From a virus (Duplodnaviria; Heunggongvirae; Uroviricota; Caudoviricetes), in IMG/VR virus record IMGVR_UViG_2693429523_000013: a stretch of DNA of 22,934 nucleotides; one strand, written 5' to 3'. Under the pieces are notes generated by a model. That model was not told where the DNA came from. It saw nothing but the letters and a program-made list of their open reading frames with translations, and did not search any database. A program made the translations under genes and the position numbers. This document shows, one piece after another, positions 5,216 to 22,934 of this stretch; position 1 is the stretch's first letter; every line of letters starts with the position of its first letter.

Positions 5216-5234
5216 CCCGTTGTAAAGTGAGGAT

Positions 5235-6806: not shown

Positions 6807-6855
6807 ATATCAATACGGTTCTGACGAGTCGCTTACAAACAAAAGGCTGGTTAAC

Positions 6856-7077: not shown

Positions 7078-7128
7078 GAATTTAGACAGTGGATGTAATC
7101 CTATGGGGTAAACCCATAGGATTTGAAA

Positions 7129-8478: not shown

Positions 8479-8501
8479 AGAAGAATCCTTTATGCAAATT
8501 A

Positions 8502-8696
8502 TCAGCCTTTAGGTGTTATTCCTTGTTTTATTAGTTCGGCACGAGCCAGTTCTTTTAGCCAGTTACCTAAGCTCATCCCTTCTTTGGCAGCGACATTAAC
8601 CATTTGTTCTTTTAATTCTGGGTTAATACGGACTTGGAATGCTGGTGCTTTACCTGCACCTTTCGGTTGTTTATCACGTTGAATGATAGTTGACAT
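8502..8696 (-). CDS. ribbon-helix-helix (Arc/CopG-like) DNA-binding protein, 64 aa; likely regulator of the downstream 449-aa gene
   Basis: ..FQVRINPELKEQMVNVAAKEGMSLGNWLKELARAEL.. matches the beta-strand/helix/helix pattern of Arc-type repressors. Its stop is 23 nt upstream of the 449-aa gene start on the same strand. Confidence 0.6.
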   Translation of the reverse strand: MSTIIQRDKQPKGAGKAPAFQVRINPELKEQMVNVAAKEGMSLGNWLKELARAELIKQGITPKG

Positions 8697-8738
8697 GTGT
8701 GTACCTATTGCTTAGTATGATTCTTGATAGGTACACAC
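8697..8738. promoter_or_regulatory. 12-bp perfect inverted repeat (GTGTGTACCTAT-N18-ATAGGTACACAC) directly upstream of the RHH gene; candidate operator or translational hairpin
   Basis: Arms at 8697-8708 and 8727-8738 are exact reverse complements. On the minus strand, the arm adjacent to the start codon contains the only SD-like sequence (AGGT) for the RHH gene. Confidence 0.4.
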
Positions 8739-8835
8739 CTTATCATGTTTTATTGCTATATAACAACGCCCTGCAGTGCTCGCAACACATACAGGGCGTC
8801 TAACCACCAACGATAGCAACAGTATCGAGGTAGCT

Positions 8836-9039
8836 ATGAGAAATCATACCACACACCCGCAAGGGCGGGATTCGCACAACCTGAATAAATACATCTGGCG
8901 TTTTATCGCCCTGAGCACCGCACAACCACGCGTAATACACATCGAGGCCGCCAGCGAACAGGAAGCCCGCCAGCAATCCCCAACTGGCTACGTGATGATA
9001 TTCGCCGCCCGTATTCGTCAGGAGGTGTGCCGTGCTTAA
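8836..9039 (+). CDS. hypothetical small protein (67 aa), first gene of the divergent plus-strand operon
   Basis: GAGG at 8827-8830 precedes ATG 8836. The track ORF from 8776 is longer but lacks an RBS. No family recognised. Confidence 0.35.
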   Translation: MRNHTTHPQGRDSHNLNKYIWRFIALSTAQPRVIHIEAASEQEARQQSPTGYVMIFAARIRQEVCRA

Positions 9040-9217
9040 AACCTTCCGTGTATTTGCCCGAGCTGTTAACCCACTGGGCCACACAATTGGTATCACTCAG
9101 AACGTGAAGGCTGTTAATGTTCAGACGGCTATTGCTGCGGTGAGAAGCGAATCATCAGAATATGGCTTATCACAAGTCATTATTTCAGCAGTGTATGAAT
9201 TAAAAGAGGTGCATTAA
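9032..9217 (+). CDS. hypothetical small protein (61 aa)
   Basis: GTG start at 9032 with GGAGG at 9021-9025 (6-nt spacing); overlaps the previous stop, suggesting translational coupling. Confidence 0.4.
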   Translation: MLKTFRVFARAVNPLGHTIGITQNVKAVNVQTAIAAVRSESSEYGLSQVIISAVYELKEVH

Positions 9218-9408
9218 TGAAGGAAATTACATTACACGAAGCCGCTGAACGTGCGCACCAGACAGAAATTATTTGCCGCCTTCTTGAGGTATACCCGAAC
9301 AAAATTACAGATGCTGATATATCCGCGCTGGCGAGCCTACTGGCGCGCCTTTCGGGAAGTGTCGCTAGTTTCCTGATTGAGGAAGAAAGTAAGCTGGTGG
9401 GGGATTAA
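9217..9408 (+). CDS. hypothetical small protein (63 aa)
   Basis: ATG overlaps the upstream stop (TAATG); AGAGG lies upstream. Confidence 0.45.
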   Translation: MKEITLHEAAERAHQTEIICRLLEVYPNKITDADISALASLLARLSGSVASFLIEEESKLVGD

Positions 9409-9630
9409 ATGAATACAGAACGGGAAGTCTTTTTTAAATTGTTAGCATGTGCAGAAAGTTCATTAACTTTAAATAATTCAGCAAAAGCAATATTAAATAT
9501 GTGGCTTGATTGCATAAATGACAATGAAGATGCAAATATTGCTTATGGCCTGTTGTCACTTATTGATGAATCAGCAGAAAAACTCAATGACGCAATAAAT
9601 AGTGCCCTGCTATCAAATAAGTCGAGTTAA
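9409..9630 (+). CDS. hypothetical small protein (73 aa), AT-rich
   Basis: Start immediately follows the previous stop and is preceded by a G-rich SD-like stretch. Confidence 0.45.
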   Translation: MNTEREVFFKLLACAESSLTLNNSAKAILNMWLDCINDNEDANIAYGLLSLIDESAEKLNDAINSALLSNKSS

Positions 9631-9647
9631 GTCGAGGAATAAATAAT

Positions 9648-9947
9648 ATGGAAATGAAAAATTCTGGCTTTATTGCCAGCGGCCCCGCTCGGCCTGAATT
9701 TATGAACGGCGATATTTACCGCGATAAATACGGCGGCACGGTAACGATTAAAGGCGTGGCAGAACGGCGCATCACTTACCGCCGTGAGGGGTATAGCTAT
9801 GACTGCGTGATGCCTGTTTATCAGTTCCGGCGTGATTTTTCCCTGGTATATGCCGCACCCCGCAGTAAGCCCATCAGCAGGGAAAAAGCGCGGGGAAACA
9901 TCCAGAAAATGAAAAGCATGATTAACGCATTCAGGGGCAAAAAATGA
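9648..9947 (+). CDS. hypothetical protein (99 aa)
   Basis: GAGGAA precedes the ATG; the stop overlaps the primase start (ATGA). Confidence 0.5.
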   Translation: MEMKNSGFIASGPARPEFMNGDIYRDKYGGTVTIKGVAERRITYRREGYSYDCVMPVYQFRRDFSLVYAAPRSKPISREKARGNIQKMKSMINAFRGKK

Positions 9948-11695
9948 AACTGGCACCGAACTTAAAAAAACAGCCACGCGACAGACTGACAGAGGTAATC
10001 ATCTTTGCAGGTAGTGATGCGTGGAGCCATGCGAAAGAGTGGCGGGAATGGGCGGGTAAACATATTGCCGCCGACGATGTGCCGCCTGTCGTGCTGGCTG
10101 ATGAGCAACTGAAAAATATCACCGATTACCGGATCATTGATGAAGATCGTCAGTGTGTGCGTGTTTACCGCGCAGGACATATCACAGAGCACAGCATGAC
10201 GCAGATTGTTACGTTACTGGCTGTGGCTGGAGTGAAGACCGTACACGAATACGCGGGGATTACTGACACCAGCCCAGTGGATTTATCCGAGCAGTTGCCG
10301 CGACTCAAAGAGGAATGCGAGCGTGGGGAAAGTCTGGTGCTTAATCTTCCGACGAAGCAAAAGGCGCAACTTTCACAGATGGCAGACAGTGAACGTGCAC
10401 AACTACTTGCCGATCGCTTTGATGGTGTGTGTGTTCATGCAGAAAGTGAAATCGTCCACGTATGGCGCGGCGGGGTATGGTGTCCGGTCAGCACAATGGA
10501 GCTGAGCCGCGAAATGGTGGCGATCTATTCAGAGCACAGGGCCACGTTCAGCAAACGTGTAATCAATAACGCCGTGGAAGCGTTAAAAGTTATTGCCGAC
10601 CCCATGGGGGAGCCGTCCGGTGATTTGCTACCGTTCACTAATGGTGTGCTTAACCTGAAAACGGGGGAATTTTCTCCGCACTCGCCGGAGCACTGGAGCA
10701 CCACGCACAATGGCATTGAGTACACGCCACCAGTAGCAGGGGAAAACATCCGCGATAATGCGCCAAATTTCCATAAATGGCTTGAACATGCTGCAAGAAA
10801 AGACCCGCGTAAGATGATGCGTATATGTGCCGCGTTATACATGATTATGGCGAACCGCTACGACTGGCAGATGTTCATTGAGGCCACCGGAGACGGGGGA
10901 AGCGGTAAGAGTACATTTACCCATATTGCCACCCTGCTTGCTGGCAAACAGAACACCGTAAGCGCGGAGATGACATCACTCGATGATGCAGGAGGGCGCG
11001 CGCAGGTTGTCGGGAGTCGTCTTATCGTCCTTGCCGATCAGCCGAAATATACGGGGGAAGGCACGGGCATCAAGAAAATCACGGGAGGCGATCCCGTTGA
11101 AATTAACCCGAAATATGAGAAGCGATTCACGACGATAATAAGGGCGGTGGTACTGGCAACCAATAACGACCCGATGATCTTTACCGAACGGGCCGGAGGT
11201 GTGTCACGCCGTCGGGTGATTTTCCGGTTCGACAACATTGTAAGGGAGGACGAAAAAGACAAGGAATTACCGGAAAAGATAGCGGCAGAAATCCCCGTAA
11301 TTATCCGCCGCTTGCTGGCTAATTTTGCTGCCCCTGAAAAGGCACGGGCTTTATTACTGGAACAGCGTGACGGTGATGAAGCTCTGGCAATAAAGCAGCA
11401 AACGGATCCGGTTGTTGAGCTTTGCGCGGCGCTGGAGTTTCTGGAGGAAGCTCGTGGGCTAATGATGGGCGGTGGTGGTGACACCGTGAAGTACACGACC
11501 AGAAACAGCCTTTACCGTGTCTATATGGCCTTCATGGCATACACAGGAAAGGGGAAATGTTTGAGCGTGAATGAGTTCGGAAAGGCTATGAGGTCAGCGG
11601 CGAAAGTTTACGGATATGAATATATTACGCGAAAAGTTAAGGGAGTCACGCAGACCAACGCAACGACTACTGATGATTGCGATGCGTTTTTATAA
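9944..11695 (+). CDS. phage/plasmid primase-helicase, P4-alpha C-terminal type (D5_N-like plus SF3 NTPase), 583 aa
   Basis: Walker A GDGGSGKST and Walker B-like RLIVLADQP; overall architecture is that of P4-family / PICI replication proteins as recalled. An iteron array lies directly downstream. Confidence 0.85.
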   Translation: MKLAPNLKKQPRDRLTEVIIFAGSDAWSHAKEWREWAGKHIAADDVPPVVLADEQLKNITDYRIIDEDRQCVRVYRAGHITEHSMTQIVTLLAVAGVKTVHEYAGITDTSPVDLSEQLPRLKEECERGESLVLNLPTKQKAQLSQMADSERAQLLADRFDGVCVHAESEIVHVWRGGVWCPVSTMELSREMVAIYSEHRATFSKRVINNAVEALKVIADPMGEPSGDLLPFTNGVLNLKTGEFSPHSPEHWSTTHNGIEYTPPVAGENIRDNAPNFHKWLEHAARKDPRKMMRICAALYMIMANRYDWQMFIEATGDGGSGKSTFTHIATLLAGKQNTVSAEMTSLDDAGGRAQVVGSRLIVLADQPKYTGEGTGIKKITGGDPVEINPKYEKRFTTIIRAVVLATNNDPMIFTERAGGVSRRRVIFRFDNIVREDEKDKELPEKIAAEIPVIIRRLLANFAAPEKARALLLEQRDGDEALAIKQQTDPVVELCAALEFLEEARGLMMGGGGDTVKYTTRNSLYRVYMAFMAYTGKGKCLSVNEFGKAMRSAAKVYGYEYITRKVKGVTQTNATTTDDCDAFL

Positions 11696-11711
11696 AAAAT
11701 GGCAATGGTTA

Positions 11712-11934
11712 TCTACCTTGTCTACCTGACTGAAAGAAAATACTTTTATTTCAATGTATTAATGCAGGTAGATAACTATTTTTCACTGTCTACCTGTTAT
11801 CTACCTTATCTACCCATTTTTGTAGACAGGTAAGGAGACGGGTAGAGATGAGGTAGACAGCTATTTGGGGCTGTCTACCTCCCTGAAACCCGCGCCATTA
11901 CTGGCCTGATAACTAATCAGGTAGACAAGGTAGA
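11712..11934. repeat. iteron array; candidate replication origin of the satellite-like module
   Basis: About 12 copies of the hexamer TCTACC / GGTAGA in both orientations (TCTACC at 11712, 11721, 11789, 11800, 11809, 11874; GGTAGA at 11767, 11841, 11852, 11920, 11929, plus a partial copy at 11822). An AT-rich spacer sits at 11731-11766, immediately 3' of the primase gene. Confidence 0.6.
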
Positions 11935-11984
11935 CAAGGTGGTGGTGCACAAAAAACTTTTTAAACGAGGGGGTAAAAATAAAA

Positions 11985-12242
11985 ATGCACACATCAGGAA
12001 AACTGAACAAACATATAAAGCCACATTACCGCGCCCTTGATATGGCTGAACACTGGCTAAGGGTGGCGATTAAGGCAATAGACCGCAACGCCGGGGAAGG
12101 ATACGCGAAAGCACATCCCGAACTGATAAGCGCATTCATGACAACGGCGGCTGCAAACTTTGCCACGCTGACCGAACGGGAGATTGCTGAAGCGGAGGAA
12201 GTGACAACAATCAATATTAAGTCCGGAGAGCAGGCAGCATGA
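11985..12242 (+). CDS. hypothetical protein (85 aa)
   Basis: GAGGGGG lies upstream of the ATG; the stop overlaps the ssb start (ATGA). Confidence 0.5.
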   Translation: MHTSGKLNKHIKPHYRALDMAEHWLRVAIKAIDRNAGEGYAKAHPELISAFMTTAAANFATLTEREIAEAEEVTTINIKSGEQAA

Positions 12243-12688
12243 CGGCGCAAATATCAGTTTACGGGCGGTTGGTGGACGACCCGCAGACAAAACAGACCAG
12301 CAAGGGCACCCCCATGACGCTGGCGCGTATGGCGGTATCACTGCCCTGCAGTCAGTCGGATGACGGTCTGGCGACGTTGTGGTTATCTGTCCTGGCGTTT
12401 GGCAGACAAGCCGACGCGCTGGCAAAGCATCACAAAGGCGAACTCCTGAGCGTGGCGGGTAACATGCAGATGAGCCAGTGGACTGGACAGAACGGCGAAA
12501 CGCGGCAGGGCTGGCAGGTTATCGCAGACAGCGTAATCAGTGCGCGATCGGTGCGACCGGGCGGCAAAAAAGGCCAACAGGGGCAGGCTACTGACGCACT
12601 GAACAGAGCAAAACAACAGGCAGATCAGCAAGGAAGCCAGCCACCAGAGGGAGATAATGAGCAATGGGGAGATGATATCCCGTTTTAA
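12239..12688 (+). CDS. ssb: single-stranded DNA-binding protein (149 aa)
   Basis: OB-fold region aligns by eye with E. coli SSB (ISVYGRLVDDPQ.., WLSVLAFGRQAD, GELLSVAGNMQMSQWTGQNGE..); Gly/Gln-rich linker; acidic C-terminal tip ...WGDDIPF matches the SSB DDDIPF tail. Confidence 0.85.
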   Translation: MTAQISVYGRLVDDPQTKQTSKGTPMTLARMAVSLPCSQSDDGLATLWLSVLAFGRQADALAKHHKGELLSVAGNMQMSQWTGQNGETRQGWQVIADSVISARSVRPGGKKGQQGQATDALNRAKQQADQQGSQPPEGDNEQWGDDIPF

Positions 12689-12904
12689 ATATTGCCAATA
12701 AAAAAAGCCGGAAAAAATAAATTTTCCGGCATGCTACATAAATCCCGACCAAAGGGAGTGAAGATATTAACACTAATTGTCCGCACTGAAGTTGTCACCC
12801 CAAAACTTTATACAACATTGCACTCGGTTGCATGTGTTCGCATGACAAATATCGGTGATAGCATATATCCACAATTATTTTTAATGAATGCAAAGAGGAT
12901 GCGT

Positions 12905-13945
12905 ATGGTTGATTTATATTCGCCTACCCAGCTTGTACAGGTGGTTAATGCTGTAGATGTACAAAAACAACTAAATGCGTTGTTTACCAGTTTGTTTTTT
13001 ACTCGCTCGGTAATGTTTGGATCGCGCGATATTATTCTTGATACAATCGACGATCCAAATATCCCAATTGCAGCGTTTTGTTCTCCTATGGTGGGTAGTA
13101 AAGTTTCACGTGACGAAGGGTACGAATCAAAAACAATTCGTCCAGGCTATATGAAGCCGAAAAGCAGCATTGATCCAAATAAGTTAGCTGTGCGCCCTGC
13201 TGGTGTATCACCTGAGCAATACAATGCTTTTGGGGCGCGTAATATTAAAGTTAAACAGGCGATTGTAAATCAAGCTAAAGCTATTCGTGCACGTATTGAA
13301 TGGCTTGCCGTTCAGGCAATCACAACGGGGAAAAATATCATTGAGGGCGATGGTATTGAACGTTATGAGCTGGACTGGAATATTAAACCACAAAATATCA
13401 TCACTCAGTCTGGCGGTACTGAGTGGTCAGGTAAGGATAAAGAAACTTTTGATCCAAATGATGATATTGAGAGCTACGCAGAATTTAGTGAGGGCGTCAC
13501 TAATATCATCATTATGGGCGGTAATGTATGGAAGAAATACCGTTCATTCAGAGCGATAAAAGAGGCTCTGGATACCCGTCGTGGTTCTAATTCCGAACTG
13601 GAAACGGCCCTTAAAGACCTTGGTGATTCGGTGAGTTTTAAAGGATATATGGGCGATGTTGCGATTGTTGTTTACAGCGGGCGTTATACCGACGAGGACG
13701 GAACTGAAAAACATTTCCTTGATCCTGATTTGATGGTGCTTGGCAATACGGCTCTTCAGGGGATTGTCGCCTATGGCGGTATTCAGGATCCGGAGCTAAT
13801 CCGAATGGGGCTGACTAAAGCCGAACTTGCACCGAAAAACTATATTGTGCCTGGTGATCCGGCTATTGAATATGTGCAGACACATTCAGCACCACAGCCA
13901 ATACCGGCCCGCATCAATCGTTTTGTTACCGTTCGCATTGGCTAA
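12905..13945 (+). CDS. major capsid protein, lambda gpE family (346 aa), divergent from lambda
   Basis: Aligns by eye along its length with lambda gpE (PGYMKPK.., NIITQSGGTEWSGKDK.., DTRRGSNSELETA identical, C-terminal ..GDPA.E...QSAP..). AGAGGA is 5 nt before ATG 12905; the track ORF start at 12692 adds 71 residues with no homology. Confidence 0.8.
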   Translation: MVDLYSPTQLVQVVNAVDVQKQLNALFTSLFFTRSVMFGSRDIILDTIDDPNIPIAAFCSPMVGSKVSRDEGYESKTIRPGYMKPKSSIDPNKLAVRPAGVSPEQYNAFGARNIKVKQAIVNQAKAIRARIEWLAVQAITTGKNIIEGDGIERYELDWNIKPQNIITQSGGTEWSGKDKETFDPNDDIESYAEFSEGVTNIIIMGGNVWKKYRSFRAIKEALDTRRGSNSELETALKDLGDSVSFKGYMGDVAIVVYSGRYTDEDGTEKHFLDPDLMVLGNTALQGIVAYGGIQDPELIRMGLTKAELAPKNYIVPGDPAIEYVQTHSAPQPIPARINRFVTVRIG

Positions 13946-13954
13946 GGGGGAGCA

Positions 13955-14296
13955 ATGGCTACTCATTACACTGAACTCATGGCTGGCACTGAAGCACTGG
14001 TGACTACGCTGGGGATATTTTCAGCTAATAAAGGGGTAATTCCTGCATTTACGCCACTGATGCAGGAAGATGCAACAGGTGCACTGGTGGTATGGGATGG
14101 TTCGAGCGTAGGTAAAGCGGTTTATGTTTCCGCTGTACAAATCGACACCGCGAAAAAAACACAGGCTCAGGTCTATAAGACAGGTGTCTTAAATGTTGAT
14201 GCTCTGAACTGGCCTGAGTCTGTAAAAGAACTGTCAGTAAAGATTGCAGCGTTTGTTGGCTCAGGTATTTCTGTTCAGCCGCTGGCTCGTGTGTAA
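13955..14296 (+). CDS. head decoration protein, lambda gpD-like (113 aa)
   Basis: ..TPLMQEDATGALVVWDGSSVGKAVYVSAVQ...YKTGVLNVDALNWPE...AAFVGSGISVQPL parallels lambda gpD (..TPLM...KLVAWDG...YKSGTF..VLWPE..AFAGTAISIV) as recalled. AAGGGGGA RBS present. Confidence 0.7.
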   Translation: MATHYTELMAGTEALVTTLGIFSANKGVIPAFTPLMQEDATGALVVWDGSSVGKAVYVSAVQIDTAKKTQAQVYKTGVLNVDALNWPESVKELSVKIAAFVGSGISVQPLARV

Positions 14297-14307
14297 AGGG
14301 GGATACA

Positions 14308-14691
14308 ATGCAAAATGATTACAATGACCTTAAGCCAATTGCCGAAATGATGTACCCGAATCCAGCTGTAGAGGAATTAAAAGCTATCGCTGACAAAATG
14401 TGTTTAAGCGAGCGCCTTGTTGATATGAATCAGGTGATGGAAATTACAACCCTGAGTCGGCGTACACTGCTAAACCTTGAGGCTAGTGGAGAGTTCCCGG
14501 AGCGTGTGCAGGTTACGGAAGGGCGTAAGGCCTGGTATTTAAGTGAAGTGATCGACTGGATAAATAATATTCCTCGCGCTTCTGAATATTGCCGCGTACC
14601 TGTCCCAAAAAAGCCAGATGCGGCGCTATGCCTCAAGATTGAGCGTGTACGCCGCAATGCACGGGATGGTCGCTATAAGCTGATTGGTTGA
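14308..14691 (+). CDS. AlpA-type HTH domain protein with ~40-aa N-terminal extension (127 aa)
   Basis: Residues ~40-90 (MNQVMEITTLSRRTLLNLEASGEFPERVQVTEGRKAWYLSEVIDWI) fit the AlpA HTH pattern; AAGGGGGA RBS before ATG 14308. Confidence 0.6.
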   Translation: MQNDYNDLKPIAEMMYPNPAVEELKAIADKMCLSERLVDMNQVMEITTLSRRTLLNLEASGEFPERVQVTEGRKAWYLSEVIDWINNIPRASEYCRVPVPKKPDAALCLKIERVRRNARDGRYKLIG

Positions 14692-14744
14692 TGAAATTAG
14701 GGCCCGCTCTGGCTGGCGGGTCCTTTCCGGCGATCTGACAGGCT

Positions 14745-14912
14745 ACGGGGCGTCAGGCGCGCGGATTTTCGCTATTTATGAAAATTTTCCGGTTTAAGGC
14801 GTTTCCGTTCTTCTTCGTCGTAACTTAATGTTTTTATTTAAAATACCCCCTGAAAAGAAAGGAAACGACAGGTGCTGAAAGCGAGCTTTTTGGCCTCTGT
14901 CGTTTCCTTTCT
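14745..14912 (+). promoter_or_regulatory. lambda-type cos region: cosN-like site (~14745-14762) and cosB with three CGTTTCC-core R elements
   Basis: 14760-14936 reads almost exactly as the recalled lambda left-end/cosB sequence upstream of Nu1. R3 is at 14791-14797, inverted R2 at 14861-14867 and R1 at 14901-14907; R2/R1 lie in a 16-bp perfect inverted repeat (14856-14871 / 14897-14912). The 12-mer at 14748-14759 is GGGCGTCAGGCG rather than the recalled lambda GGGCGGCGACCT. Confidence 0.7.
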
Positions 14913-14936
14913 CTGTTTTTGTCCGTGGAATGAACA

Positions 14937-15488
14937 ATGGAAGTCAACAAAAAGCAGCTGGCTGACATTTTCGGTGCGAGTATCCGTACCATTCAGAACT
15001 GGCAGGAACAGGGAATGCCCGTTCTGCGAGGCGGTGGCAAGGGTAATGAGGTGCTTTATGACTCTGCCGCCGTTATAAGATGGTATGCCGAAAGGGATGC
15101 TGAAATTGAGAACGAAAAGCTGCGCCGGGAAGTTGAAGAACTGCGGCAGGCCAGCGAGACAGATCTCCAGCCAGGGACTATTGAGTACGAACGCCATCGA
15201 CTTACGCGTGCGCAGGCCGACGCACAGGAACTGAAGAATGCCAGCGAAACAGGTGAGGTAATTGACACTGCATTTGCGACTTATGCCTTGTCGAAATTAA
15301 CTGGGGAAGTTGGAGCAATCATTGATAGTCTTCCACTTGCGATCTGTCGACAGTTTCCTGGCATGGAAAAACGGTATCAGGACTTCATTAAGATGGAGGT
15401 CAGTAAAGCATTTATTCGAGCTTACCAGATCTCAGATAACATTCCAGATATGGCTGAAAGGTATATCAAGGATAATCAGCGAAGTTAA
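14937..15488 (+). CDS. Nu1: terminase small subunit Nu1, chimeric: lambda-type N-terminal DNA-binding domain with a divergent C-terminal domain
   Basis: First ~100 residues (MEVNKKQLADIFGASIRTIQNWQEQGMPVLRGGGKGNEVLYDSAAVI.WYAERDAEIENEKLRREVEELRQASE.DLQPGTIEYERHRLTRAQADAQELKNA) match lambda gpNu1 as recalled; the C-terminal ~80 residues are similar in length but clearly different. Confidence 0.9.
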   Translation: MEVNKKQLADIFGASIRTIQNWQEQGMPVLRGGGKGNEVLYDSAAVIRWYAERDAEIENEKLRREVEELRQASETDLQPGTIEYERHRLTRAQADAQELKNASETGEVIDTAFATYALSKLTGEVGAIIDSLPLAICRQFPGMEKRYQDFIKMEVSKAFIRAYQISDNIPDMAERYIKDNQRS

Positions 15489-15544
15489 AACAAATGAAAC
15501 CATAGGTAGGAAGAGTGCTTAGGTGGTTCTTTGTTGCTTAAAAG

Positions 15545-15577
15545 TCGCCAGTAAAACTGGCGATAGATTTTATTTGT
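15545..15577 (+). terminator. rho-independent terminator-like hairpin after Nu1
   Basis: 8-bp stem TCGCCAGT/ACTGGCGA (15545-15552 / 15557-15564) with a 4-nt loop, followed by the T-rich run tagattttatttg. Lies between convergent Nu1 and the DUF2971-like gene. Confidence 0.45.
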
Positions 15578-15594
15578 CAAAAGCATTTGACCTT

Positions 15595-16500
15595 TTAAGG
15601 TAGTGGTACTATGGATATTTTTCTGTCGTTCCCAAATGAACTTTTAAATAATTTCGCTCTTGGATACATTTTAACTAGTGATGCGACTTCATCGAACTCG
15701 CTGGCATCAAAAAGAGGACCAAGTATTACAGATTTTAACTCAAAAGGGTGAAATTTTAAGTCGCTATATTGACCAGTGCTATTTGGCCTAGCGTAGGTTG
15801 AAATTCTCCACTCTCTTTCATATGCCCATTCTTCTGTTTTTATGAATATTATCTCATTATTGATATATTCAATTGACTTATTGTCTGGCATGAAAAGCAA
15901 CTCGGCCATCCCTTCAGCAGTGTGAGTTAGAGGCATTTCATCTGTGTATTTCATAGGTTTGGCTATTAACCAAGCGCTATCCAGAAAGTCTACACAATCA
16001 AATTCGATAACTATACCTTTATATTTATCGGCATAGTGATTCCACATAGGAGTGATTATAGGGCTCTCAGATAAACACAAAATCCTTCTGTTATTAAGCA
16101 TTCCTCGCCAGACATCTTTCATTTCTTGTATTGCCGCAGGAGCGCCAATCCCAACTGGTGGAATGTTTACCATTTCTTGAAATCTTTCAATTAATCCTGC
16201 GGGTATGCCTAAAGGAAATGACTTTTGGAAATCACTTAGCATTGTTCTAATTCTAGGGTTTAAATTTTGTATGTCTTCTCTGGGGGTAATCAACTCCGCT
16301 ATTAACTTGCGGGCTAAAGCTTTGCCAATATTAATTTCGTTAATACCAGGCATAACTTCTCTTGGAACATCAAAAGGGTCATTAAATAGGACCGGAGAAC
16401 TCCATCTAAGGCTGCATGAATCAAGAACAATCTTCGCGGTATTCAACGACATATACTTATAAAATGTTGAGCGTTCATGCATTCTGTTGGGTGAGCGCAT
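15595..16500 (-). CDS. DUF2971-like protein (301 aa), AT-rich moron
   Basis: N-terminal ..STFYKYMSLNTAKIVLDSCSLRWSSPVLFNDPFDV.. matches the recalled DUF2971 signature (YKY.S...L...lw.S.p..FNDPFD). AGAGGA is 4 nt upstream of the ATG (complement of 16498-16500). AT-rich by eye. Confidence 0.7.
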   Translation of the reverse strand: MRSPNRMHERSTFYKYMSLNTAKIVLDSCSLRWSSPVLFNDPFDVPREVMPGINEINIGKALARKLIAELITPREDIQNLNPRIRTMLSDFQKSFPLGIPAGLIERFQEMVNIPPVGIGAPAAIQEMKDVWRGMLNNRRILCLSESPIITPMWNHYADKYKGIVIEFDCVDFLDSAWLIAKPMKYTDEMPLTHTAEGMAELLFMPDNKSIEYINNEIIFIKTEEWAYEREWRISTYARPNSTGQYSDLKFHPFELKSVILGPLFDASEFDEVASLVKMYPRAKLFKSSFGNDRKISIVPLP

Positions 16501-16648
16501 AGATTCCTCTTGTTAAATGAGTGATGGTTTTCATCCATGTATTGCACGTTGTATTGCATTCAAGGATTTTCCATTTCAATTCTATAGCTAAAACGTAATC
16601 AAATCATTCACATCCTTTCATATTTGACTCATGTAGCCGAAGCATGAG

Positions 16649-17425
16649 GTGAATCCGCAGATGACCCTGCGTCGCCTGCCGGATGAAGATCCGCAGAATC
16701 TGGCGGACCCGGCTTACCGCCGCCGTCGCATCATCATGCAGAACATGCGAGACGAAGAGCTGGCCATTGCTCAGGTCGAAGAGATGCAGGCAGTTTCTGC
16801 TGTGCTTAAGGGCAAATACACCATGACCGGTGAAGCCTTCGATCCGGTTGAGGTGGATATGGGCCGCAGTGCGGCGAACAACATCACACAGTCCGGTGGT
16901 ACGGAGTGGAGCAAGCGTGACAAGTCCACGTATGACCCGACCGACGATATCGAAGCCTATGCGCTGAACGCCAGCGGAGTGGTGAATATCATCGTGTTTG
17001 ATCCGAAAGGCTGGGCGCTGTTCCGTTCCTTCAAAGCCGTCAAGGAGAAGCTGGATACCCGTCGCGGCTCTAATTCCGAGCTGGAGACAGCGGTAAAAGA
17101 CCTGGGCGAAGCGGTGTCCTATAAGGGGATGTATGGCGATACGGCGATCGTCGTGTATTCCGGACAGTACGTGGAAAACGACGTCAAAAAGAACTTCCTT
17201 CCGGACAACACGATGGTGCTGGGGAACTCTCAGGCACGCGGTCTGCGCACCTATGGCTGCATTCAGGATGCGGACGCACAGCGCGAAGGTATTAACGCCT
17301 CTGCCCGCTACCCGAAAAACTGGGTGACCACCGGCGATCCGGCGCGTGAGTTCACCATGATTCAGTCAGCACCGCTGATGCTGCTGGCTGACCCTGATGC
17401 GTTCGTGTCCGTACAACTGGCGTAA
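16649..17425 (+). pseudogene. E: major capsid protein E, lambda-type, 5'-truncated (lacks ~80 N-terminal codons)
   Basis: Translation MNPQMTLRRLPDEDPQNLADPAYRRRRIIMQNMRDEE... to ..FVSVQLA is near-identical to lambda gpE residues ~84-341 as recalled. Lambda similarity begins near 16637; an in-frame TAG sits at 16634-16636 and upstream DNA is unrelated. Confidence 0.8.
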
Positions 17426-17466
17426 TCATGGCCCTTCGGGGCCATTTTCTCTCTGTGGAGGAGTCT

Positions 17467-17862
17467 ATGACGAAAGATGAACTGATTGCCCGTCTTCAGG
17501 TGCTGGGTGAGCAACTGAACCGTGATGTCAGCCTGACGGGGACGAAAGAAGAACTGGTGCTCCGTGTGGCAGAGCTGGAAGAGGAGCTTGATGACACGGA
17601 TGACGCTGCCGGTCAGGACACATCTGTCAGCCCGGAAAATGCGCTGACCGGACATGAAAATGAGGTTGTATCAGCGCAGCCGGATACCGTGACTGATACG
17701 GCTGATCTGGTCACGGTTGTGGCACTGGTGACGCTGCATACTGATGCACTTCACGCCACGCGGGATGAGGCTGTGGCATTTGTGCTGCCGGGAACGGCGT
17801 TCCGTGTCTCTGCCGGTGTGTCAGCTGAAATGACAGAGCGCGGCCTGGCCAGAATGCAATAA
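17467..17862 (+). CDS. FI: lambda-type FI protein (DNA packaging / head assembly)
   Basis: MTKDELIARLQVLGEQLNRDVSLTGTKEEL...TERGLARMQ is near-identical to lambda gpFI; GGAGGAG RBS before ATG 17467. The track ORF from 17428 is an upstream extension. Confidence 0.9.
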   Translation: MTKDELIARLQVLGEQLNRDVSLTGTKEELVLRVAELEEELDDTDDAAGQDTSVSPENALTGHENEVVSAQPDTVTDTADLVTVVALVTLHTDALHATRDEAVAFVLPGTAFRVSAGVSAEMTERGLARMQ

Positions 17863-17873
17863 CGGGAGGCGCT

Positions 17874-18227
17874 GTGGCTGATTTCGATAACCTGTTCGAT
17901 GCTGCCATTGCCCGCGCCGATGAAACGATACGCGGGTACATGGGAACGTCAGCCACCATGACATCCGGTGAGCAGTCCGGCGCAGTAATACGTGGTGTTT
18001 TTGATGACCCTGAAAATATCAGCTATGCCGGACAGGGCGTGCGCGTTGAAGGCTCCAGCCCGTCCCTGTTTGTCCGGACTGATGATGTGCGGCAGCTGCG
18101 GCGCGGCGACACGCTGACCATCGGTGAGGAAAACTTCTGGATAGACCGGATTTCGCCGGATGATGGCGGAAGCTGTCATCTCTGGCTTGGGCGGGGCGTA
18201 CCGCCTGCCGTTAACCGTCGCCGCTGA
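17874..18227 (+). CDS. FII: lambda-type FII head-tail joining protein
   Basis: MADFDNLFDAAIARADETIRGYMGTSA...HLWLGRGVPPAVNRRR is near-identical to lambda gpFII. Confidence 0.92.
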   Translation: MADFDNLFDAAIARADETIRGYMGTSATMTSGEQSGAVIRGVFDDPENISYAGQGVRVEGSSPSLFVRTDDVRQLRRGDTLTIGEENFWIDRISPDDGGSCHLWLGRGVPPAVNRRR

Positions 18228-18238
18228 AAGGGGGATGT

Positions 18239-18817
18239 ATGGCCATAAAAGGTCTTGAGCAGGCCGTTGAAAACCTCAGTCGTATCAGCAGAGCGGCGGT
18301 GCCCGGTGCCGCCGCAATGGCCATTAACCGCGTTGCTTCATCCGCGATATCGCAGTCGGCGTCACAGGTTGCCCGTGAGACAAAGGTACGCCGGAAACTG
18401 GTAAAGGAAAGGGCCAGGCTGAAAAGGGCCACGGTCAAAAATCCGCAGGCCAGAATCAAGGTTAACCGGGGGGATTTGCCCGTAATAAAGCTGGGTAACG
18501 CGCGGATTGTCCTGTCCCGACGCAGGCGTCGTAAAAAGGGGCAGCGTTCAGCCCTGAAAGGTGGCGGCAGCGTGCTTGTGGTGGGAAACCGTCGTATTCC
18601 CGGCGCGTTTATTCAGCAACTGAAACATGGCCGCTGGCATGTCATGCAGCGTGTGGCCGGGAAAAACCGTTACCCCATTGATGTGGTGAAAATCCCGATG
18701 GCGGTGCCGCTGACCACGGCGTTTAAACAGAATATTGAGCGGATACGGCGTGAGCGTCTTCCGAAAGAGCTGGGCTATGCGCTGCAGCATCAACTGAGGA
18801 TGGTAATAAAGCGATGA
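18239..18817 (+). CDS. Z: lambda-type minor tail protein Z
   Basis: MAIKGLEQAVENLSRISRAAVPGAAAMAINRVASS... 192 aa, matches lambda gpZ. Confidence 0.92.
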   Translation: MAIKGLEQAVENLSRISRAAVPGAAAMAINRVASSAISQSASQVARETKVRRKLVKERARLKRATVKNPQARIKVNRGDLPVIKLGNARIVLSRRRRRKKGQRSALKGGGSVLVVGNRRIPGAFIQQLKHGRWHVMQRVAGKNRYPIDVVKIPMAVPLTTAFKQNIERIRRERLPKELGYALQHQLRMVIKR

Positions 18818-19209
18818 AACATACTGAACTCCGTGCAGCCGTACTGGATGCACTGGAGAAGCATGACACCGGGGCGACGCTTTTTGATGGTCGCCCCGCT
18901 GTTTTTGATGAGGAAGATTTTCCGGCAATTGCCGTTTATCTCACCGGCGCTGAATACACGGGCGAAGAGCTGGACAGCGATACCTGGCAGGCGGAGCTGC
19001 ATATTGAAGTTTTCCTGCCTGCTCAGGTGCCGGATTCAGAGCTGGATGCGTGGATGGAGTCCCGGATTTATCCGGTGATGAGCGATATCCCGGCACTGTC
19101 AGATTTGATCACCAGTATGGTGGCCAGTGGCTATGACTACCGGCGCGACGATGATGCGGGCCTGTGGAGTTCAGCCGATCTGACTTATGTCATTACCTAT
19201 GAAATGTGA
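18814..19209 (+). CDS. U: lambda-type tail terminator protein U
   Basis: [52 protein letters not shown]... 131 aa, matches lambda gpU; start overlaps the Z stop. Confidence 0.92.
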
Positions 19210-19216
19210 GGACGCT

Positions 19217-19957
19217 ATGCCTGTACCAAATCCTACAATGCCGGTGAAAGGTGCCGGGACCACCCTGTGGGTTTATAAGGGGAGCGGTGACCCTTATGCG
19301 AACCCGCTTTCAGACGTTGACTGGTCGCGTCTGGCAAAAGTTAAAGACCTGACGCCCGGCGAACTGACCGCTGAGTCCTATGACGACAGCTATCTCGATG
19401 ATAAAGATGCAGACTGGACTGCGACCGGGCAGGGGCAGAAATCTGCCGGAGATACCAGCTTCACGCTGGCGTGGATGCCCGGAGAGCAGGGGCAGCAGGC
19501 GCTGCTGGCGTGGTTTAATGAAGGTGATACCCGTGCCTATAAAATCCGCTTCCCGAACGGCACGGTCGATGTGTTCCGTGGCTGGGTCAGCAGTATCGGT
19601 AAGGCGGTGACGGCGAAGGAAGTGATTACCCGCACGGTGAAGGTCACCAATGTGGGACGTCCGTCGATGGCAGAAGATCGCAGCACGGTAACAGCGGCAA
19701 CCGGCATGACCGTGACGCCTGCCAGCACTTCGGTGGTGAAAGGGCAGAGCACCACGCTGACCGTGGCATTCCAGCCGGAAGGCGCAACCGACAAGAGCTT
19801 CCGTGCGGTGTCAGCGGATAAAACAAAAGCCACCGTGTCGGTCAGTGGTATGACCATCACCGTGAATGGCGTTGCTGCAGGCAAGGTCAACATTCCGATT
19901 GTATCCGGTAATGGTGAGTTTGCTGCGGTTGCAGAAATCACCGTCACCGCCAGTTAA
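19217..19957 (+). CDS. V: lambda-type major tail protein V
   Basis: [49 protein letters not shown]... 246 aa, matches lambda gpV including the C-terminal Ig-like domain; GAGGA is 4 nt before ATG 19217. Confidence 0.92.
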
Positions 19958-19972
19958 TCCGGAGAGTCAGAG

Positions 19973-20395
19973 ATGTTCCTGAAAACCGAATCATTTGAAC
20001 ATAACGGTGTGACCGTCACGCTTTCTGAACTGTCAGCCCTGCAGCGTATTGAGCATCTCGCCCTGATGAAACGGCAGGCAGAACAGGCGGAGTCAGACAG
20101 CAACCGGAAGTTTACTGTGGAAGACGCCATCAGAACCGGCGCGTTTCTGGTGGCGATGTCCCTGTGGCATAACCATCCGCAGAAGACAAAGCAGCCTTCC
20201 ATGAATGAAGCCGTTAAACAGATTGAGCAGGAAGTGCTTACCACCTGGCCCACAGAGGCAATTTCTCATGCTGAAAACGTGGTGTACCGGCTGTCTGGTA
20301 TGTATGAGTTTGTGGTGAATAATGCCCCTGAACAGGCAGAGGACGCCGGGCCCGCAGAGCCTGTTTCTGCGGGAAAGTGTTCGACGGTGAGCTGA
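19973..20395 (+). CDS. G: lambda-type tail assembly chaperone G
   Basis: MFLKTESFEHNGVTVTLSELSALQRIEHLALMKRQAEQAE... 140 aa, matches lambda gpG. Confidence 0.92.
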   Translation: MFLKTESFEHNGVTVTLSELSALQRIEHLALMKRQAEQAESDSNRKFTVEDAIRTGAFLVAMSLWHNHPQKTKQPSMNEAVKQIEQEVLTTWPTEAISHAENVVYRLSGMYEFVVNNAPEQAEDAGPAEPVSAGKCSTVS

Positions 20396-20811
20396 GTTTT
20401 GCCCTGAAACTGGCGCGTGAGATGGGGCGACCCGACTGGCGTGCCATGCTTGCCGGGATGTCATCCACGGAGTATGCCGACTGGCACCGCTTTTACAGTA
20501 CCCATTATTTTCATGATGTTCTGCTGGATATGCACTTTTCCGGGCTGACGTACACCGTGCTCAGCCTGTTTTTCAGCGATCCGGATATGCATCCGCTGGA
20601 TTTCAGTCTGCTGAACCGGCGCGAGGCTGACGAAGAGCCTGAAGATGATGTGCTGATGCAGAAAGCGGCAGGGCTTGCCGGAGGTGTCCGCTTTGGCCCG
20701 GACGGGAATGAAGTTATCCCCGCTTCCCCGGATGTGGCGGACATGACGGAGGATGACGTAATGCTGATGACAGTATCAGAAGGGATCGCAGGAGGAGTCC
20801 GGTATGGCTGA
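20377..20811 (+). CDS. T: T-frame segment of the G-T tail assembly fusion protein, made by -1 programmed frameshift from G
   Basis: Slippery heptamer G GGA AAG at 20371-20377 lies in the G frame near its 3' end, and the -1 frame is open to 20811. This matches the established lambda G/G-T frameshift. Confidence 0.8.
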   Translation: MFDGELSFALKLAREMGRPDWRAMLAGMSSTEYADWHRFYSTHYFHDVLLDMHFSGLTYTVLSLFFSDPDMHPLDFSLLNRREADEEPEDDVLMQKAAGLAGGVRFGPDGNEVIPASPDVADMTEDDVMLMTVSEGIAGGVRYG

Positions 20812-22934
20812 ACCTGTAGGCGATCTGGTCGTTGATTTGAGTCTGGATGCGGCCAGATTTGACGAGCAGATGGCCAGAGTCAGGCGTCATTTTTCCGGTA
20901 CGGAAAGTGATGCGAAAAGAACAGCGGCAGTCGTTGAACAGTCGCTGAGCCGACAGGCGCTGGCTGCACAGAAAGCGGGGATTTCCGTCGGGCAGTATAA
21001 AGCCGCCATGCGTATGCTGCCTGCACAGTTCACCGACGTGGCCACGCAGCTTGCAGGCGGGCAAAGTCCGTGGCTGATCCTGCTGCAACAGGGGGGGCAG
21101 GTGAAGGACTCCTTCGGCGGGATGATCCCCATGTTCAGGGGGCTTGCCGGTGCGATCACCCTGCCGATGGTGGGGGCCACCTCGCTGGCGGTGGCGACCG
21201 GTGCGCTGGCGTATGCCTGGTATCAGGGCAACTCAACCCTGTCCGATTTCAACAAAACGCTGGTCCTTTCCGGTCATCAGTCGGGTCTGACGGCAGATCG
21301 TATGCTGGTCCTGTCCAGAGCCGGGCAGGCGGCAGGGCTGACGTTTAACCAGACCAGCGAGTCACTCAGCGCACTGGTTAAGGCGGGGGTAAGCGGTGAG
21401 GCTCAGATTGCGTCCATCAGCCAGAGTGTGGCGCGTTTCTCCTCTGCATCCGGCGTGGAGGTGGACAAGGTCGCTGAAGCCTTCGGGAAGCTGACCACAG
21501 ACCCGACGTCGGGGCTGACGGCGATGGCACGCCAGTTCCATAACGTGACGGCGGAGCAGATTGCGTATGTTGCTCAGTTGCAGCGTTCCGGCGATGAAGC
21601 CGGGGCATTGCAGGCGGCGAACGAGGCCGCAACGAAAGGGTTTGATGACCAGACCCGCCGCCTGAAAGAGAACATGGGCACGCTGGAGACCTGGGCAGAC
21701 AGGACTGCGCGGGCATTCAAATCCATGTGGGATGCGGTGCTGGATATTGGTCGTCCTGATACCGCGCAGGAGATGCTGATTAAGGCAGAGGCTGCGTTTA
21801 AGAAAGCAGACGACATCTGGAATCTGCGCAAGGATGATTATTTTGTTAACGATGAAGCGCGGGCGCGTTACTGGGATGATCGTGAAAAGGCCCGTCTTGC
21901 GCTTGAAGCCGCCCGAAAGAAGGCTGAGCAGCAGACTCAACAGGACAAAAATGCGCAGCAGCAGAGCGATACCGAAGCGTCACGGCTGAAATATACCGAA
22001 GAGGCGCAGAAGGCTTACGAACGGCTGCAGACACCGCTGGAGAAATATACCGCCCGTCAGGAAGAACTGAACAAGGCACTGAAAGACGGGAAAATCCTGC
22101 AGGCAGATTACAACACGCTGATGGCGGCGGCGAAAAAGGATTATGAAGCGACGCTGAAAAAGCCGAAACAGTCCGGCGTGAAAGTGTCTGCGGGCGATCG
22201 TCAGGAAGACAGTGCTCATGCTGCCCTGCTGACGCTTCAGGCAGAACTCCGGACGCTGGAGAAGCATGCCGGAGCAAATGAGAAAATCAGCCAGCAGCGC
22301 CGGGATTTGTGGAAGGCGGAGAGTCAGTTCGCGGTACTGGAGGAGGCGGCGCAACGTCGCCAGCTGTCTGCACAGGAGAAATCCCTGCTGGCGCATAAAG
22401 ATGAGACGCTGGAGTACAAACGCCAGCTGGCTGCACTTGGCGACAAGGTTACGTATCAGGAGCGCCTGAACGCGCTGGCGCAGCAGGCGGATAAATTCGC
22501 ACAGCAGCAACGGGCAAAACGGGCCGCCATTGATGCGAAAAGCCGGGGGCTGACTGACCGGCAGGCAGAACGGGAAGCCACGGAACAGCGCCTGAAGGAA
22601 CAGTATGGCGATAATCCGCTGGCGCTGAATAACATCATGTCAGAGCAGAAAAAGACCTGGGCGGCTGAAGACCAGCTTCGCGGGAACTGGATGGCAGGCC
22701 TGAAGTCCGGCTGGAGTGAGTGGGAAGAGAGCGCCACGGACAGTATGTCGCAGGTAAAAAGTGCAGCCACGCAGACCTTTGATGGTATTGCACAGAATAT
22801 GGCGGCGATGCTGACCGGCAGTGAGCAGAACTGGCGCAGCTTCACCCGTTCCGTGCTGTCCATGATGACAGAAATTCTGCTTAAGCAGGCAATGGTGGGG
22901 ATTGTCGGGAGTATCGGCAGCGCCATTGGCGGGG
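20804..22934 (+). CDS. H: lambda-type tape measure protein H, partial (continues past the window end)
   Basis: MAEPVGDLVVDLSLDAARFDEQMARVRRHFSGTESDAKRTAAVVEQSLSRQALAAQKAGISVGQYKAAMRMLPAQFTDVATQLAGG... is open to the window end; GGAGGA RBS before ATG 20804. Absent from the ORF track because no stop falls in the window. Confidence 0.92.
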   Translation, partial: MAEPVGDLVVDLSLDAARFDEQMARVRRHFSGTESDAKRTAAVVEQSLSRQALAAQKAGISVGQYKAAMRMLPAQFTDVATQLAGGQSPWLILLQQGGQVKDSFGGMIPMFRGLAGAITLPMVGATSLAVATGALAYAWYQGNSTLSDFNKTLVLSGHQSGLTADRMLVLSRAGQAAGLTFNQTSESLSALVKAGVSGEAQIASISQSVARFSSASGVEVDKVAEAFGKLTTDPTSGLTAMARQFHNVTAEQIAYVAQLQRSGDEAGALQAANEAATKGFDDQTRRLKENMGTLETWADRTARAFKSMWDAVLDIGRPDTAQEMLIKAEAAFKKADDIWNLRKDDYFVNDEARARYWDDREKARLALEAARKKAEQQTQQDKNAQQQSDTEASRLKYTEEAQKAYERLQTPLEKYTARQEELNKALKDGKILQADYNTLMAAAKKDYEATLKKPKQSGVKVSAGDRQEDSAHAALLTLQAELRTLEKHAGANEKISQQRRDLWKAESQFAVLEEAAQRRQLSAQEKSLLAHKDETLEYKRQLAALGDKVTYQERLNALAQQADKFAQQQRAKRAAIDAKSRGLTDRQAEREATEQRLKEQYGDNPLALNNIMSEQKKTWAAEDQLRGNWMAGLKSGWSEWEESATDSMSQVKSAATQTFDGIAQNMAAMLTGSEQNWRSFTRSVLSMMTEILLKQAMVGIVGSIGSAIGG

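Follow-up and report, generated by a model that had tools for sequence, protein, structure and literature searches.

Gene content of the locus

The window, by which we mean the whole analyzed stretch of 22,934 nucleotides, contains an insertion sequence, a satellite with its own capsid gene, and part of a lambda-type helper prophage. An ISCro1-like insertion sequence of the IS66 family (4132-6836, + strand; tnpA 4191-4868, tnpB 4868-5215, tnpC 5235-6806) lies farthest left; over its 2,705 bp it matches the ISCro1 copy of the comparison sequence L006 at 99.8% identity, and the PGAP names agree with this identification. It is abutted by the last 18 nt, stop included, of a tyrosine integrase gene (6837-6854, +). 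The small helix-turn-helix (HTH) gene that comes next in the integration zone (6856-7077, +) is a candidate excisionase or AlpA-type regulator; its product is 100% identical over 73 aa to that of L001, and it comes after int in intact elements, where the annotations of L001, L002, and L005 call it a helix-turn-helix transcriptional regulator. The variable zone holds a cargo gene on the - strand (7129-8478; GC ~0.34-0.36) whose 449-aa product gave no match in the Pfam search and is recognized by PADLOC as a PD-T7-1-type anti-phage defence protein (E 1e-153, with the whole profile covered); strain SCU-316 carries the same gene in its intact satellite.

The replication zone comprises a primase/helicase gene (9944-11695, +; Pfam D5_N, DUF5906, and Pox_D5), the homologues of which are labelled DNA primase family protein in relatives, and a gene for a single-strand DNA-binding protein (12239-12688, +; Pfam SSB, E 2e-15). 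The late zone begins with a full-length major capsid gene of the E family (12905-13945, +; 346 aa) and continues with a 113-aa head decoration protein of the D family (13955-14296, +; Pfam HDPD, E 4e-15; 38% identity to lambda D), an AlpA-type HTH regulator (14308-14691, +; Pfam Phage_AlpA, E 8e-9), a cos site captured from a lambdoid phage, as seen by alignment with the lambda left end (14716-14936, +), and a Nu1-type small terminase subunit (14937-15488, +; Pfam Phage_Nu1, E 4e-84). The 12-nt cohesive-end sequence at 14748-14759 is GGGCGTCAGGCG, a cosN variant. The segment 14716-15244 matches the helper cos/Nu1 region of L001 at 97% identity, and the terminase subunit is a mosaic, its residues 1-102 being the same as in helper Nu1 and its residues 103-183 divergent. 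A further cargo slot beside attR carries, on the - strand, a gene for a candidate defence protein (15595-16500; Pfam DUF2971; PADLOC PDC-S31, E 3e-32), and in other strains is filled by an abortive-infection gene, a restriction endonuclease, or a DUF262+HEPN pair.

The order of these zones, namely integration (6856-7077), variable/Bro (7129-9947), replication (9944-12688), and late (12905-15488), is that of the Gram-negative phage-inducible chromosomal islands (PICIs). Only the two cargo genes lie on the - strand; the HTH, primase, SSB, capsid, decoration, AlpA-like, and terS genes share the + strand with a fragment of the helper E gene, and the key satellite genes are therefore co-oriented with the interrupted late gene, as in HE-PICIs. 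The satellite spans 6837-16644 (9.8 kb, or ~11 kb with the lost int/attL arm added, the PICI range being about 10-15 kb) and, like other PICIs, is without lysis or tail genes of its own, the tail genes starting only past attR. There, tblastn and alignment delimit the 3' part of the helper major capsid gene E (16637-17425, +; codons 80-341 and the stop), after which FI, FII, Z, U, V, G, T, and the start of H (17428-22934, +; PGAP names) carry on the interrupted late operon.

The two E-family capsid genes

The satellite capsid protein matches Pfam Phage_cap_E end to end (profile positions 4-327 of 329, E 2e-41; 142 bits against a cut-off of 22.9) and is 42% identical to lambda E, nothing closer being found among 50,697 phage records. 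The best solved structure for it is 3BQW (E 2e-121), followed by lambda gpE, 7VI9 (E 6e-77); 3BQW was deposited as 'putative capsid protein of prophage'. In the helper copy, residues 80-341 of lambda E align to 16637-17422 at 97.3% (tblastn; 255 of 262 residues identical), codons 1-79 are absent, and the Phage_cap_E match of the reading frame 16649-17425 is limited to profile positions 94-328 (E 4e-49). The frame is intact over 262 codons, and 5 nt and 1 aa separate it from the uninterrupted E of phage phiSTEC1575-Stx2k. Pfam, tblastn, and pairwise alignment thus bear out the preliminary description of this locus as a full-length divergent E copy together with a 5'-truncated lambda-type copy lacking its first ~80 codons.

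Between the two proteins, BLASTP finds 47% identity over 239 aa (E 1e-71), a level that indicates homology and not chance resemblance. The identical block that had been reported in both was recovered as DTRRGSNSELETA, 13 aa encoded at 13571-13609 and 17054-17092 with 6 synonymous differences in 39 nt, and the DNA similarity described around 13561 and 17045 also holds: 13568-13620 aligns with the corresponding part of helper E at 83% (blastn), and a 135-nt block (13540-13674) shows 75-77% identity to lambda-type E genes. The centre of the satellite capsid (~aa 160-240) is closer to lambda than to 3BQW. Homologous genes on the same strand, 3 kb apart and sharing such stretches, could be read as the substrates of homologous recombination or gene conversion, or as the products of a duplication followed by decay, with the truncated E as the scar; the lambda-like capsid centre does hint at an old exchange. 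We consider this origin extremely unlikely, given that the copies are just 47% identical in protein and that the synonymous differences within the 13-aa block argue against recent conversion. Moreover, a chromosomal PICI relative at cspD-clpS (L007) carries the lambda-like central patch as well, so that the patch is older than, and independent of, the nested arrangement.

The attachment site and the restoration of E

The E fragment starts at a 10-bp crossover core, AGCCGAAGCA (16635-16644, +), which corresponds to E codons 79-82 (K-P-K-H) and occurs once in the window. L001 and L002 carry this core at each end of the satellite, lambda E carries a single copy at codons 79-82, and the core variants AACCCAAGCA and AGCCCAAGCA track synonymous E alleles. 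At the left junction of L001 and L002, E is followed by the satellite, and at the right junction the satellite is followed by E; joining the L001 halves in silico over one core yields a 1,026-nt ORF of 341 codons, with 338 of 341 residues identical to lambda E. On the satellite side of the core in the window lies a doubled TGTATTGC motif (16538-16557, +), the right arm of the HE-PICI attP (TGTATTGCACGTTGTATTGC). This TGTATTGC-N4-TGTATTGC arrangement ends 83 nt ahead of the core centre, and the left-arm motif, gone with attL in the window, begins 133 nt past the core centre in L001; the published HE-PICI arms consist of the doubled motif tgTGTATTGCantgTGTATTGCa at 81 +/- 2 bp upstream and ~132 bp downstream of the attP centre (PMC10111431). 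The window accordingly retains the attR of an integration at about codon 80 of a lambda-type E, with a short attL/attR identity block. As it holds one of the two junctions, the attL side was read from L001 and L002, which have the same core and satellites 98-99% identical to that of the window, and membership rests on relatives at 98-99.7% DNA identity.

This attL/attR anatomy already contradicts an origin through recombination between the E copies: the break coincides with an att core that has conserved attP arm motifs on either side, lies outside the similarity between the copies, and involves a core that the satellite capsid gene does not contain, and the absent 5' part of E sits across the satellite in intact composites. 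The recombination scar that had been put forward as a fallback nevertheless came nearest to the truth, the event being a site-specific integration that left attR and not an exchange between E copies.

The region 8764-22934 is collinear with L001 19989-34160 (98.4%), and in L001 the left half of the prophage is found on the opposite side of the satellite. The gene order E-5', int, HTH, variable genes, primase, SSB, capsid, decoration, HTH, (terS), cargo, E-3', FI recurs in strains 23AR0885, 07-4299, and SCU-316. In three complete E. coli genomes, the two halves of E flank this satellite, 5' on one side and 3' on the other. The attL junction is present in 173 of 5,426 complete E. coli genomes, and ~50 of 57 IMG/VR loci have the same satellite context, 12 of these showing E-5' and then int upstream. 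These comparisons bear on the further proposal that the satellite's own genome extends through the E fragment and the FI-to-tail genes, making it an 'elongated' PICI with a captured helper late block. Such captures are known, including one E:Phage_cap_E:80 element with captured segments abutting the att site (PMC10111431), and the helper head genes are indeed absent from the window. The probability of this proposal is, however, vanishingly small, because the attR core and right-arm motif are intact directly ahead of the E fragment, the downstream genes are collinear with a helper prophage whose left half flanks the other side of the satellite, and the loss on the left is accounted for by ISCro1.

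Truncation of the left side by ISCro1

The ISCro1-like element stands in place of the satellite integrase gene, attL, and all that would lie farther left. The alignment of the window with L001 starts only at the last nucleotides of int, the segment 6836-7074 matching L001 18125-18363, which is the end of int (16908-18143) and the HTH gene. A tblastn search of the window with the L001 integrase returned nothing, and searches of the window for int, the 5' half of E, A, B, and C found none of them. The junction between the IS and int is identical in TUM9757. Intact elements (L001, L005) match the int remnant and the adjoining HTH gene at 96-100% identity, and the integrase was therefore lost through ISCro1 rather than being of another family. 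Because int and attL are both missing, excision should be impossible in the window. On the basis of these sequence features, the element is filed here as a probable truncated derivative of the HE-PICI E:Phage_cap_E:80 group.

Origin and function of the truncated E

Sequence comparison here showed the junctions and their core, the in silico restoration of E, the recurrence across genomes, and the IS truncation, and the truncated E is very probably the attR-side remainder of a helper E that was split by satellite integration and then stranded by ISCro1. The two E-family genes would belong to two mobile elements, one nested in the other, with a phage-inducible chromosomal island having integrated into helper E at AGCCGAAGCA. 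The divergent copy at 12905-13945 would be the satellite's own capsid gene, forming a late module with the D-like, AlpA-like, cos, and Nu1-like components, and its product, together with the decoration protein, probably builds satellite particles. Intact composites would have no E until the satellite excises, and excision would rebuild E exactly, an outcome that others have demonstrated experimentally for 11capE. In the window, ISCro1 and an associated rearrangement appear to have taken out the integrase gene, attL, the 5' half of E, and the helper head genes; the E fragment here is therefore likely to be a permanent and very recent pseudogene, probably without a function of its own. Its intactness could be due either to the need for E to be rebuilt on excision or to this recency.

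The preliminary description had instead favored an expressed fragment that could act as a dominant-negative poison of capsid assembly in helper or superinfecting lambdoid phages; in the form considered here, the fragment is a maintained gene whose product is initiated at Met88. The ORF is unbroken for 262 codons, and its earliest in-frame starts are GTG 16649 and ATG 16661, the latter being codon Met88 with GAGG (16646-16649) 11 nt 5' of it. By the order of the HK97 fold, the N-terminal 87 residues lost before Met88 span the N-arm and possibly also a portion of the E-loop. The N-arm and E-loop strands of gpE mediate inter-subunit and gpD contacts (PMC5701804), and a fragment devoid of the N-terminus could in principle interfere; late read-through, as proposed earlier (PMC10111431), would cross it in intact composites. 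We nonetheless regard an expressed poison as highly unlikely. The GAGG is present as had been noted, but as a signal it dissolves into ordinary internal coding sequence of this E allele, the GAGG..ATG string being identical in the intact E of phiSTEC1575-Stx2k, Kati, and ev207 (deposited complete phage genomes). The attR copies vary freely in the GAA/GAG codon (16 with GAA, 22 with GAG), and with both alleles common there is no sign of selection for a ribosome-binding site. Further, the junction creates an in-frame TAG (16633-16635) that closes the frame 5' of the fragment, a scan of the + strand over 12400-17600 found no promoter-like site, and the upstream neighbour gene is on the opposite strand. 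An intact frame is in any case to be expected from E rebuilding, and here it is only 5 nt away from a functional E; the fragment is also present wherever the satellite integrates, so no separate function is needed.

A variant of this idea concerns intact composites, where read-through before excision might lead to both E pieces being translated, poisoning lambda-type shells and tilting proheads toward the satellite shell; we give it little credence as well. The N-terminal piece would have 82 residues followed by a 9-residue tail, and the C-terminal piece would be Met88-341. If true, the split-E fragments would have a working role in the interference mechanism instead of being inert by-products.

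Relationship to known systems

The helper-embedded satellite arrangement is already known, having been published in 2023, and the window is a decayed example of it. Tommasini, Mageeney and Williams (2023, NAR Genom Bioinform) described the HE-PICI Eco567.11capE with its own capsid gene at the site E:Phage_cap_E:80, for which they listed a 10-bp identity block and 201 instances; mitomycin C induced excision of 11capE in E. coli NRG857c with restoration of attB (qPCR and deep sequencing), and the authors were unable to recover satellite particles (PMC10111431). A phage parasite that keeps the helper capsid gene split until its departure has thus been mapped in hundreds of genomes and was partly tested in 2023, and the window adds only a decayed, IS-frozen example carrying its own combination of defence cargo. 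Annotators who meet two "major capsid protein" calls beside a primase/SSB/AlpA block, one labelled "partial, missing N-terminus", should take the pair as the mark of a helper-embedded satellite rather than of a duplication or a poison gene.

The window satellite shares with the 11capE group the target at about codon 80 of a lambda-type E, the 10-bp identity block, the same orientation relative to the late operon, the doubled TGTATTGC arm motif at equal distance, the order of int, HTH, variable zone, primase/SSB, and capsid with other late genes, an E-family capsid gene without the att core, and a lambda-like cos region. Unlike 11capE, it has lost int, attL, and the left half of the helper in the ISCro1-associated rearrangement, and it possesses a Nu1-type terS, said to be missing in 11capE; its cargo, as compared with that of 11capE, consists of the PD-T7-1 and DUF2971/PDC-S31 genes. 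The four zones and lambdoid helpers are also features of the chromosomal Gram-negative PICIs of the EcCICFT073 type (Fillol-Salom et al. 2018, 2019), which differ in having chromosomal integration sites and interacting with the helper in trans only. The chromosomal relative at cspD-clpS has the same primase/SSB/capsid/decoration/HTH/terS module, with capsid and decoration genes at 83% DNA identity. Rpp-type PICIs keep the helper cosQ/cosN and have a changed cosB (PMC9026076), whereas in the window satellite cosB and the DNA-binding half of TerS match the helper and the cohesive-end sequence differs from that of resident helpers. Finally, the arrangement resembles the 'skin'-type elements of sporulation genes, in that a gene is split, no replacement end is supplied, and precise excision restores it, an analogy with excisable elements regulating gene integrity that was drawn by the 2023 paper (PMC10111431). 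It differs from them in that the gene being interrupted is the helper phage's and is regulated to the satellite's benefit, and in the window the switch is broken.

Origin of the two E-family capsid genes

The window carries two plus-strand genes of the E family of capsid proteins, namely a divergent version of 346 aa (12905-13945), which matches the Pfam Phage_cap_E profile end to end, and a second ORF (16649-17425), which covers profile positions 94-328 only. Translated searches (tblastn) agree with this distinction: complete lambda E aligns to 12908-13942 with 42% identity, and its residues 80-341 align to 16637-17422 with 97.3% identity. The preliminary description of this DNA, which had recognized a full-length copy and a lambda-type copy without its first ~80 codons, is thus borne out in all of its descriptive statements. 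Its interpretation is replaced by the one developed below.

A megablast comparison of window positions 8500-17500 with complete E. coli genomes recovered many records bearing the annotation "major capsid protein (x2)". In strain 23AR0885 the lambdoid prophage genes Nu1, A, W, B, C and D are followed by a 246-nt piece of E annotated as "missing C-terminus". This piece leads directly into a satellite of the phage-inducible chromosomal island (PICI) type, comprising a tyrosine integrase, an HTH gene and variable genes, and further on a primase, SSB, a major capsid protein, a decoration protein, an HTH protein, a small terminase and a DUF2971 gene. Beyond the satellite lie an E piece "missing N-terminus", FI and the tail genes, and isolates 07-4299 and SCU-316 show an identical nesting. 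E passes into the satellite after ...GTCA AGCCGAAGCA at the left junction, and at the right junction the satellite passes into E at ...CATGT AGCCGAAGCA TGAAGTG; this 10-mer occurs a single time in lambda E, at codons 79-82. Joining the two E pieces of 23AR0885 in silico over one copy of the core yields a 1,026-nt ORF, whose product is identical to lambda E at 338 of 341 positions. Taken together, the nesting, the junction cores and the restoration of E establish that the truncated copy is what remains, on the attR side, of a helper E gene interrupted when the satellite integrated site-specifically. The divergent full-length gene is the capsid gene that belongs to the satellite itself.

An alternative is recombination between the two copies. 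The resemblances seen in the preliminary description are genuine: the proteins share 47% identity across 239 aa (E 1e-71), and the 13-aa stretch DTRRGSNSELETA is present in both. Resemblance at the DNA level is modest, reaching 83% over 53 nt against helper E, and a 135-nt block is 75-77% identical to lambda-type E genes. The identical 13-aa stretch holds 6 synonymous differences in 39 nt, which, along with the low identity of even the best DNA blocks, rules out recent conversion. The satellite capsid protein is on the whole nearer to PDB 3BQW, a structural-genomics entry described as a "putative capsid protein of prophage", than to lambda gpE, but its central third (approximately residues 160-240) is more like gpE than like 3BQW. 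The same lambda-like patch is found in a chromosomal PICI relative at cspD-clpS (L007), ruling out nesting as its cause; hence, any exchange was old and unrelated to the nesting. The patch could reflect such an old exchange or a constraint from co-assembly with helper head proteins.

The E fragment as a potential interfering protein

The preliminary description also suggested that translation from an internal ATG (16661) preceded by GAGG could yield a truncated subunit acting as a dominant-negative poison of capsid assembly. The string is indeed present, although as ordinary coding sequence of E (His82-Glu83-Val84...Met88) rather than a dedicated start. Phages phiSTEC1575-Stx2k, Kati and ev207 (deposited complete genomes), whose E genes are intact, have the same 21 nt, CATGAGGTGAATCCGCAGATG, and GAA replaces GAG in lambda, 23AR0885 and 07-4299. 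Both alleles are about equally common among attR copies (16 GAA versus 22 GAG), and a dedicated translation start is accordingly ruled out. An in-frame TAG at 16633-16635 arises from the junction itself, the gene upstream of the fragment is on the opposite strand, and a promoter scan of the plus strand from 12400 to 17600 returned no sigma-70-like promoter, which is weak negative evidence.

The fragment is undecayed, with differences of 5 nt and 1 aa relative to the uninterrupted E of phiSTEC1575-Stx2k, and integration fully explains both its presence and its intactness. The N-arm and E-loop of gpE contact neighboring subunits and gpD (PMC5701804). Going by the order of elements in the HK97 fold, from which we derive the gpE boundaries, the 87 residues missing before Met88 would comprise the N-arm and perhaps part of the E-loop. 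Given these contacts interference by a truncated gpE is conceivable, though nothing in the sequence or the comparisons calls for it.

Insertion-sequence damage and the state of this copy

Alignment of the window to the composite of 23AR0885 is confined to 6836-7074, which contains the last nucleotides of int and the HTH gene, and to the stretch from 8764 to the window end. An ISCro1-like element of the IS66 family (4132-6836) adjoins the final 18 nt of int. Its identity to another ISCro1 copy is 99.8%, and its ends were set by alignment to such a copy, as a search for inverted repeats did not define them. By tblastn the window contains no integrase, no lambda-type E residues 1-79, and no A, B or C, and the core occurs once. 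Therefore, the satellite is stranded here: it should be incapable of excision, and restoration of E should be impossible.

Strain TUM9757 shares the IS/int junction, being the only complete E. coli genome to do so, has likewise lost the helper head genes, and contains nested IS copies. ISCro1 strikes these composites repeatedly, at the 3' end of int in the window and TUM9757 and within the E 5' piece of strain ABW_A19; ISCro1 copies lie at 9862-12496 in L008 and at 4533-7237 in L006. The exact left side of the window is found in no complete E. coli genome, and none covers at least 80% of window positions 1-9000. The DNA left of the IS (1-4131) is unrelated to prophage and satellite, implying a rearrangement that joined two islands; its matches elsewhere are annotated as inovirus Gp2 family, zinc-ribbon and GTPase family proteins with Ag43-type neighbors.

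The cos site and small terminase

The satellite cos region (14716-14936) is ~97% identical to that of helpers and lambda. Within it, the 12-nt cohesive end at cosN (14748-14759) reads GGGCGTCAGGCG, as opposed to GGGCGGCGACCT in helpers, with 5 of 12 positions differing. The variant is shared by the window and all five E-embedded satellites examined in annotated genomes; the canonical form is found in the resident helpers of 23AR0885, 07-4299 and SCU-316 and in the chromosomal relative L007. A satellite-specific cohesive end is nevertheless ruled out by three lambdoid contigs from a scan of IMG/VR (L019, L053 and L064), where GGGCGTCAGGCG directly precedes genuine lambda-type Nu1 and A genes; the variant therefore also occurs in lambdoid phages. 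L053 has an intact E.

The satellite terS (14937-15488) is a mosaic, with residues 1-102 showing one difference from helper Nu1 and residues 103-183 being ~40% identical. From the domain maps of lambda Nu1, we assign DNA binding to the conserved half, and self-association and TerL binding to the divergent region. Not every relative has terS, which is found in 23AR0885 and not annotated in 07-4299 or SCU-316.

Cargo and distribution

Two low-GC genes on the opposite strand occupy the two variable slots of the satellite, namely a PD-T7-1 defense protein (7129-8478, minus strand; PADLOC E 1e-153) and a DUF2971/PDC-S31 candidate (15595-16500, minus strand; E 3e-32). In other strains the attR-side slot is occupied by an abortive-infection gene, a restriction endonuclease or a DUF262+HEPN pair. 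Scanned against Rfam over its whole length, the window yielded no family at gathering score, and hence no C4/isrK-type immunity RNA.

In 395 of the 5,426 complete E. coli genomes, at least 80% of the length of the satellite's capsid-decoration gene pair is present; 173 genomes have the attL junction. Among 57 IMG/VR loci selected via the satellite's cos variant, ~50 have the module of capsid, decoration, HTH and cos; the E 3' piece lies downstream in ~40 of these, and the E 5' piece followed by int lies upstream in 12. The IMG/VR locus L046 (around -8842 to -7658 relative to cos) combines this module (99% capsid identity) with an integrase that is just 53% identical to the E-targeting one, which suggests mobility of the late module between satellites whose integration sites differ.

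Relationship to published helper-embedded satellites

The arrangement is already known, having been published in 2023 (PMC10111431), and the window carries a member, truncated by an IS, of the group of helper-embedded PICIs targeting codon ~80 of lambda-type E. The published satellite 11capE has a 10-bp identity block at the site E:Phage_cap_E:80, and the authors counted 201 elements of this kind. Upon mitomycin C treatment, the composite excises and replicates, after which the satellite excises precisely; many helpers of these satellites appear truncated (PMC10111431). A doubled motif, tgTGTATTGCantgTGTATTGCa, was reported ~81 bp upstream and ~132 bp downstream of the attP center (PMC10111431). 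In the window TGTATTGCACGTTGTATTGC occupies 16538-16557 and ends 83 nt ahead of the core center, and in 23AR0885 the second motif copy lies 133 nt after the attL core. The gene order matches the four zones of published helper-embedded PICIs (PMC10111431), namely integration (HTH, 6856-7077), variable (7129-9947), replication (primase, 9944-11695; SSB, 12239-12688) and late (capsid, decoration, AlpA-like gene, cos and terS, 12905-15488). The window differs from 11capE, which was reported without terS (PMC10111431), in carrying a Nu1-type version of this gene.
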